Source: a phage. Taken from it: 35,772 bases of DNA. The stretch lies in the NCBI GenBank assembly GCA_019566835.1, contig GCA_019566835.1_3045.2; one strand, written 5' to 3'. The first letter of the stretch is position 1. Each line of letters starts with the position of its first letter. This document shows positions 30,497 to 30,768 of this stretch, piece by piece. The notes beneath the pieces were generated by a model, which had not been told where the DNA came from, made no database searches, and was given only the letters and a program-made list of their open reading frames with translations. Made by a program: the position numbers and the translations under genes.

Positions 30497-30530
30497 TATT
30501 TTTCCTTTCAATTCATGGGTTAGTAGATTA

Positions 30531-30556
30531 ATTATACAATAAATATATAAAGCAAT
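30531..30556 (-). promoter_or_regulatory. MotA-dependent middle promoter for gene 56
   Basis: Minus strand reads ATTGCTTTA (perfect MotA box), 11 nt, TATAAT, about 30 nt upstream of the gene 56 start. Confidence 0.55.
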
Positions 30557-30567
30557 AAGGAGGACAT

Positions 30568-30768
30568 ATGGTACAAAAATTAATGGCACTTGTTAATGCC
30601 ATAAAAGGTAATAAAAAACGTATAGCTTTTACTATTTCTGCTATGGTAGGAATTTTACTCTGGAACTTTATTTTATCACCAATTGCAATTGCGCATGGTG
30701 TTAATATTCCAGTAGTTACTCTTGATACATTTGTAGATTTAGCATTTGCTTTAGTTGGGTTGATTTAA
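30568..30768 (+). CDS. Plus-strand small membrane protein (66 aa) in the 56-61 gap
   Basis: Consensus SD AAGGAGG 4 nt before the ATG; hydrophobic product; fills the gap exactly, with its stop overlapping the gene 61 stop. Confidence 0.5.
   Translation: MVQKLMALVNAIKGNKKRIAFTISAMVGILLWNFILSPIAIAHGVNIPVVTLDTFVDLAFALVGLI

Follow-up and report, generated by a model that had tools for sequence, protein, structure and literature searches.

The closest described relatives of the locus analysed here are RB32ORF030w, RB69ORF029w and VR7ORF033w, small genes of T4-like phages that belong to phrog_2024, a family of unknown function. In size, the encoded protein also recalls the class II holins and pinholins such as S68 of phage 21 (about 65–70 aa), with which it would share late expression and a possible two-helix N-in/C-in hairpin; it differs from them in showing no detectable sequence similarity, in lacking a charged cytoplasmic tail, in having a very short second helix and in lying outside a lysis cassette. 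A further described system is the holin family PF11351 (GTA_holin_3TM), which we take to be TC 1.E.54, with the putative holin of the rcc00555/rcc00556 lysis pair as its namesake. The family is named after the Rhodobacter capsulatus gene-transfer-agent lysis genes rcc00555 and rcc00556 (as cited in PMC3423380).

The window, that is, the whole 35,772-nt stretch of DNA that was analysed, is a segment of a Tequatrovirus (T4-like) genome, and the 2 kb around the ORF share 99% identity with Escherichia phage vB_EcoM-S1P5QW and 98% with many phages of the RB32 type. Between genes 56 and 61, the initial annotation had placed a hydrophobic plus-strand ORF of 66 codons with a consensus Shine–Dalgarno site AAGGAGG and a stop overlapping that of gene 61, and it had regarded this ORF as the only credible plus-strand gene inside the minus-strand block. 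All of this is borne out by the layout in Table 1 and by a Kyte–Doolittle profile that peaks at 2.0 over residues 19–42. Within the block (5351–35772), the ORF is the sole ATG-initiated plus-strand frame of at least 25 aa that has a Shine–Dalgarno site and lies clear of minus-strand ORFs, the two other candidates found being 27–28 aa long and devoid of such a site. The GGAGG(A) upstream of the ATG is retained in all 20 loci compared, and the overlapping TTAA stops of the ORF and gene 61 recur in RB32, T4, Kosakonia phage 305 and RB69.

Table 1. Features of the 56–61 interval and copies of the late-type octamer in the window (positions are those of the window).
Feature	Position	Strand	Remarks
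Protein-coding ORF	30568..30768	+	66 aa + stop, ATG start: MVQKLMALVNAIKGNKKRIAFTISAMVGILLWNFILSPIAIAHGVNIPVVTLDTFVDLAFALVGLI
Shine–Dalgarno AAGGAGG	30557..30563	+	4 nt 5' of the ORF ATG
TTAA palindrome	30765..30768	.	overlapping convergent TAA stops of the ORF (+) and gene 61 (-)
Gene 56 (dCTPase)	29978..30496	-	divergent from the ORF; tblastn with T4 gp56, 70% identity; annotation of relatives
Gene 61 (DNA primase)	30765..31793	-	convergent with the ORF; tblastn with T4 gp61, 99% identity; annotation of relatives
MotA box TATTGCTTTA, gene 56 middle promoter	30548..30557	-	one base in common with the ORF Shine–Dalgarno site
-10 TATAAT, gene 56 middle promoter	30531..30536	-	11 nt from the MotA box; aligns with T4 16820-16825
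Late-promoter-like box AATAAATA	30538..30545	+	22 nt 5' of the ATG; T4 consensus TATAAATA, A(-13) variant
WATAAATA before holin gene t	4668	+	layout like that of the ORF
WATAAATA before soc	29592	-	layout like that of the ORF
WATAAATA	4382	+	intragenic, in a gene 38-like ORF
WATAAATA, copy TATAAATA	18684	+	intragenic, antisense within a minus-strand gene; possible antisense late promoter
WATAAATA	7434	-	overlaps a start codon

Two other signals in this interval were set aside. A 203-aa version of gene 56 that opens at a GTG at 30589 is artefactual; as in T4, the start of gp56 is the ATG at 30496. A minus-strand terminator-like hairpin (30602–30583), located just upstream of the gene 56 middle promoter and 160 nt downstream of gene 61, covers ORF codons 6–12 and is followed by a T-run; it is weak, with 8 pairs including 3 G-C, its count is at chance level (1 found, 0.7 expected), and it is not treated as a feature. 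The matching VR7 sequence, checked by eye, contains no comparable inverted repeat, and an Rfam scan of 30200–31000 yields nothing meaningful (mir-3473 at 20 bits against a threshold of 71.8).

The ORF protein matches phrog_2024 over its full length (E=1.5e-31, residues 2–66 on profile positions 1–65 of 65), and this is the only family recovered when the window protein is scanned against Pfam, NCBIfam and PHROG; the NCBIfam matches of its relatives scatter over unrelated membrane families. It is 98% identical to RB32ORF030w and 51% identical to the VR7 protein, and a tblastn search matches 868 phage records, 694 of which cover at least 80% of the protein. The ORF is annotated in RB32 (as "similar to RB69ORF029w"), VR7, Mineola, Kosakonia phage 305 and RB69, and as "hypothetical" in hundreds of records, so its existence is not new. 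An ORF of 62–66 aa occupies the strand opposite to 56 and 61, between these genes, in Tequatrovirus, Mosigvirus (RB69), Gaprivervirus (VR7) and Jiaodavirus (Mineola), as well as in Kanagawavirus (Kosakonia phage 305) and in a further type (L017–L019), with a protein that matches the one found in Klebsiella phages Marfa and Potts1. The comparison of this interval across T-even phages, proposed earlier as a check, thus finds the ORF kept in six Tevenvirinae genera. Gene 56 (or dam) upstream and convergent gene 61 downstream frame it in 19 of the 20 loci as well as in RB69; locus L016 is a short contig on which gene 61 alone is visible. Relative to RB32ORF030w, RB69ORF029w and VR7ORF033w, position, length, Shine–Dalgarno site and upstream box all match, identifying the same gene with no substantive difference; the absence of dam from the window places the ORF back to back with the gene 56 middle promoter.

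The frame shows the marks of a coding sequence under constraint. It alone stays clear of stop codons throughout the 20 loci, dN/dS ranges from 0.06 to 0.39 within lineages, and 13 of the 22 variable sites in Tequatrovirus are third codon positions. Family members as distant as about 20% identity retain a length of 62–70 aa and the motif W-N-x4-P-x-A-x3-G-x3-P..(D/E)..G, the residues that persist at about 20–30% identity being W32, N33, P38, A40, G44, P48, an acidic residue at 53 and G64. A chance, unexpressed ORF in an AT-rich spacer, propagated by annotation pipelines, would agree with its shortness, with its omission from curated T4 records and with the lack of a Pfam family, but such an origin is very unlikely indeed: across six genera and outside them, at identities from 97% to about 20%, the length, frame, start context and motif are kept, dN/dS stays far under 1, and every other frame is closed in some lineage. 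Together, the conserved open frame, the purifying selection, the synteny in six genera and the conserved late-like box uphold the earlier view of a credible plus-strand gene, and comparative sequence evidence makes the ORF almost certainly a real one. An HMM search of 1.84 billion representative proteins returns 20 in all at E<=0.001, which marks the family as small and narrow.

A second, paralogous small gene is observed in VR7 (HM563683.1, locus L002, 2701–2970, plus strand), directly downstream of VR7ORF033w and unannotated. It is of the type beginning MGTLFYQIWK, which Klebsiella phages Marfa and Potts1, like L017–L019, carry as an intact gene of 66 aa; the VR7 copy has a C-terminus frameshifted relative to these intact homologues and overlaps gene 61 by about 70 nt. 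It represents a tandem duplicate in decay or, alternatively, an error in the sequence.

T4 itself carries the gene intact at 17738–17938 on the plus strand (3239–3439 of locus L003), with 97% amino acid identity to the window protein. The T4 copy fills the 310-bp "gap" between dam and 61, is unannotated in both NC_000866.4 and AF158101.6, and is preceded by GATAAATA at 21 nt and AAGGAGG at 5 nt from its ATG. The initial statement that T4 has dam between 56 and 61, and that this interval of the window encodes no methyltransferase, proves correct, no Dam homologue being present anywhere in the window. Relative to T4, about 900 bp carrying dam are missing, and homology resumes at the ORF Shine–Dalgarno site. 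Because the ORF and dam coexist in T4, the ORF is neither a replacement for dam nor a gene peculiar to this phage.

Several further observations concern the mosaic character of this region. The gp56 protein is 70% identical to its T4 counterpart whereas the adjoining gp61 is 99% identical, which indicates a mosaic junction at the dam/ORF boundary. Downstream of gene 56, T4 and VR7 each have a 224-aa segF-sized ORF, but the window has none, and only small minus-strand ORFs lie there between gene 56 and soc. In Kosakonia phage 305 (NC_070776.1, locus L005, 479–1942), gene 56 is annotated as two pieces around a homing-endonuclease gene, which may represent an intein-less split or an endonuclease invasion.

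Upstream of the ORF, the late-promoter-like element that the initial annotation had pointed to near 30538 is present as AATAAATA, suitably placed on the plus strand and identical to a documented single-base variant of the T4-type late promoter. Of 50 T4 late promoters, 9 are of this A(-13) type (PMC2988020), and the T at -13 is poorly conserved in T4-like phages (PMC1524935). An nATAAATA box starts 20–41 nt before the ATG in all 20 loci and in RB69 (21/21); its first base is A in the window, RB32, RB69 and L016–L019, G in T4, C in VR7, and T, giving the full consensus, in Kosakonia phage 305. This box is kept while the DNA upstream of it varies, consisting of gene 56 directly, of dam or of other inserts of 0.6–0.7 kb. 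Moreover, WATAAATA is scarcer in the window than in shuffled sequence (6 copies, as against 14 +/- 4.1), and three of the six copies sit 18–31 nt upstream of an ATG with a strong Shine–Dalgarno site, namely those of t, soc and the ORF. The likeness is closest to t, which has AATAAATA 18 nt before its ATG where the ORF has the same box at 22 nt; t and soc are established late genes, whereas late transcription of the ORF is presumed. A transcript from the box would start near 30551, with roughly 17 nt of leader.

A published HMM scan of RB69 tempers this assignment, for it lists 31 late promoters and none of them 5' of RB69ORF029w, although the list does include one at 15279 (-), just upstream of soc; its authors find late promoters solely before orthologues of T4 late genes. 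Box spacing also varies in its consequences: in VR7 and Kosakonia phage 305 the box lies so near the Shine–Dalgarno site that the presumed start coincides with the first base of that site, and in Mineola the distal box alone would keep the site within the mRNA. On balance, late transcription of the ORF is probable. No plus-strand intrinsic terminator is found for more than 4 kb past the ORF, and a late transcript would consequently run antisense into gene 61 unless stopped by Rho.

On the opposite strand, the gene 56 middle promoter proposed in the initial annotation is recovered as the MotA box TATTGCTTTA, an 11-nt spacer and TATAAT. T4 middle promoters have the consensus MotA box (a/t)(a/t)(a/t)TGCTTtA at 12 +/- 1 bp from a -10 element TAtaaT (PMC2988021); the window promoter, running from 30557 to 30531, agrees with this pattern in box, spacing and -10, and is homologous to the mapped T4 promoter P56/69, which has its start site at 16813. 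The same annotation had also read the Shine–Dalgarno site and start codon of the ORF as the reverse complement of the MotA box and -10, and this does not hold: the Shine–Dalgarno site (30557–30563) abuts the box, and the start codon, at 30568, falls beyond the promoter. It is the plus-strand late-promoter-like AATAAATA that occupies the spacer separating the MotA box from the -10, and the coupling between the ORF and the gene 56 promoter consists of adjacency plus a late box within the promoter spacer.

This arrangement raises the question of whether a late plus-strand RNA could matter more than the protein, by running antisense into gene 61 and by colliding with or occluding the gene 56 (oriA) middle promoter, which would help to shut off early and middle expression. 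The late box inside the middle promoter spacer and the lack of a plus-strand terminator would both suit such a role, and T4 transcribes both strands at several sites at different times (PMC2988020). The pattern of conservation argues otherwise. Purifying selection acts on the amino acids, the open frame and the motif persist where DNA change is saturated, and the consensus Shine–Dalgarno site is conserved in all loci, while in T4 the box lies about 900 bp from the gene 56 promoter, so that promoter interference is not a conserved property. A primary role of the RNA thus has only a slim chance of being correct, though RNA and protein roles of the locus could coexist.

The protein itself is very probably a membrane protein, judging from its predicted topology. 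Five basic residues (K4, K13, K16, K17 and R18) precede the hydrophobic stretch 19–42, residues 44–66 are moderately hydrophobic with two Asp, and the chain ends in ...LAFALVGLI with no charged residue beyond D57. An AlphaFold2 model built from a 27-sequence alignment contains helices at 2–12, 16–42 and 52–63 with a mean pLDDT of 75. One helix of the protein is clearly of the membrane type, and the hydrophobic helix at the C-terminus, with roughly 13 hydrophobic residues, is short for a membrane span. By the positive-inside rule, the basic N-terminus should be cytoplasmic. For the orthologue RB69ORF029w, a transmembrane segment at residues 21–41 and no signal peptide were predicted by Nolan et al. 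(2006). A Foldseek search of the model against BFVD recovers members of the same family alone, and the label "Holin" on one of them, A0A482MZV5, is a submitter annotation that was not taken as evidence.

Detectable similarity outside the family is confined to holins and emerges from the relatives rather than from the window protein, which has no Pfam match at E<=10 and no NCBIfam or holin match. Four family members match PF11351 weakly (E 0.03–0.1), the best of them at 13.6–15.3 bits against a gathering threshold of 24.8 bits, and the three examined singly align in the same register, at about profile positions 66–117 of 123; two members additionally match phrog_3427 (holin), with a best E of 5e-4. 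For a profile comparison, nine phage proteins were gathered as the holin set by their homology to the holin of DSL-LC05, a protein with a PF11351 score of 78.5 bits, and most of the PF11351 genes used adjoin endolysin-type genes (peptidase M15, GH108, endolysin, peptidoglycan-binding). Aligning 39 family sequences with these nine holins by hhalign gives a probability of 89.5%, E=2e-6 and a score of 37.1 over 51 columns, pairing query positions 19–69 with template positions 68–125 of 147. Since 200 column-shuffled controls score 10.1 +/- 2.0 (maximum 17.1) and the reversed alignment 10.2, the similarity is specific and not compositional. W32, F34, P38, G44, P48, D53 and G64 line up with conserved holin positions, and every family-invariant residue (W32, P38, G44, P48, the acidic residue at 53 and G64) is among those matching them.

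The common region comprises the last ~55 residues of the holins, namely helices 2 and 3 with the intervening loop, and is marked by the pattern aromatic-x-F-h-h-x-P ... G ... (L)P-x-h-(D/E) ... G and by a basic stretch before the first common helix. Homology to this two-helix membrane core is accordingly well supported by the profile comparison and can be considered likely. The complete PF11351 architecture, by contrast, spans about 120–150 aa with N-terminal hydrophobic and charged helical regions, two C-terminal helices and a basic tail, and it is not found here. The ORF protein has 66 aa against 127–152 aa, lacks the N-terminal ~70 residues that hold the first hydrophobic helix and the charged helical region, lacks both their RTxEKxKG tail and the highly charged, hydrophilic C-terminal tail characteristic of holins in general, and is flanked by dCTPase and primase genes with no endolysin neighbour. 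Below threshold, at half the length and without these parts, it is not a member of PF11351.

Taken together, these features are best read, tentatively and from sequence and structure prediction, as those of a late-made, holin-core-like membrane protein that is possibly involved in lysis. Late in infection, gp55-RNA polymerase would start about 6 nt downstream of the AATAAATA box, producing a short-leader mRNA whose strong Shine–Dalgarno site would direct synthesis of the 66-aa protein, for which coding capacity is supported by comparison and translation is presumed. The product would insert into the inner membrane with its basic N-terminus in the cytoplasm, helix 19–42 spanning the bilayer and the short loop HGVNIPVVT leading to a second hydrophobic helix (about 52–63) that may return into the membrane or lie in it, both helices being putative homologues of helices 2–3 of the "3-TM" holins of PF11351. 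Oligomers formed late in infection might then act on membrane integrity or on the timing of lysis, the protein serving next to holin T of T4 as an accessory factor of a holin-like or holin-modulating kind. A lysis-related function is conceivable, with the balance leaning slightly against it, and the more specific proposal of an overlooked T4 lysis component, a truncated "half-holin" that, co-assembled in the inner membrane, would tune holes, timing or lysis inhibition together with holin T, antiholin RI and RIII, is unlikely. Against any such role stands the fact that t, e, rI, rIII and the spanins already account for T4 lysis.

The remote homologues outside the T4-like phages bear on this question from another side. 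In E. coli prophages located in yegD beside alkA, or beside yliH (L023–L028), a 67–70-aa homologue is the last gene, about 1.5–2 kb from a DUF2730 gene and from an oppositely oriented Phage_lysozyme gene. This terminal position, some 1.5 kb from the lysozyme gene, is typical of accessory or exclusion genes and speaks against a lysis role. Another homologue lies directly upstream of the gene for a 352-aa RelA_SpoT-domain protein (L022, 129–1383), and in the related contig L021 the homologue sits between Endonuclease_7 and minor-tail-protein-like genes, near an integrase. Candidate spanins near the remote homologues, a 196/106-aa and a 179/105-aa pair, lack a membrane anchor in their translated sequences; in L021, the 179-aa protein hits a minor-tail-protein PHROG, the 105-aa one having no match. 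These pairs were therefore no longer taken for spanins that would mark a lysis cassette. As a whole, the remote contexts are compatible both with a part in lysis and with an accessory, moron-like function.

The accessory reading proposes a late or constitutive small membrane protein with no part in lysis, serving superinfection exclusion or immunity, or inhibiting or modulating a host inner-membrane protein; its similarity to holins would then reflect mere common ancestry of a membrane hairpin. The prophage homologues at terminal positions beside yegD/alkA or yliH and the one adjoining the RelA_SpoT-domain gene favour this reading, as do the missing holin hallmarks (charged tail, endolysin neighbour), the failure to reach the PF11351 thresholds and the fact that this region of T4 harbours further accessory genes for small membrane or periplasmic proteins, sp among them. 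It sits less easily with the signals of the locus, since the ORF bears a late-type signal only, whereas the T4 exclusion genes imm and sp are early and on the other strand, and the sole families with detectable similarity are holins. A protein unconnected with lysis is therefore a serious though somewhat improbable alternative, and the late-made, holin-core-like membrane protein with a possible part in lysis remains the preferred reading.

A literature search of limited coverage, directed at this gene, at small or unannotated T4 proteins and at ribosome profiling, found nothing on the gene; within that coverage, its absence from the curated T4 records, the homology to the two-helix core of a holin family and the late-promoter-like box whose fixed spacing to the gene survives replacement of the DNA upstream all appear to be new. 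T4 is the reference genome of its group and among the most studied, and its curated records omit a gene conserved under purifying selection in at least six Tevenvirinae genera; adding this gene is a concrete correction of the annotation. The locus additionally shows a late box kept at constant distance from its gene amid upstream exchange, with dam present or absent and other inserts in its place. For phrog_2024, a family without a function so far, the putative link to the holin core provides a testable hypothesis. Should the protein influence the timing or the inhibition of lysis, a classic system believed to be completely catalogued would gain a further component; should it have no role in lysis, it would exemplify the reuse of a two-helix module of holin origin as a small, late membrane protein.
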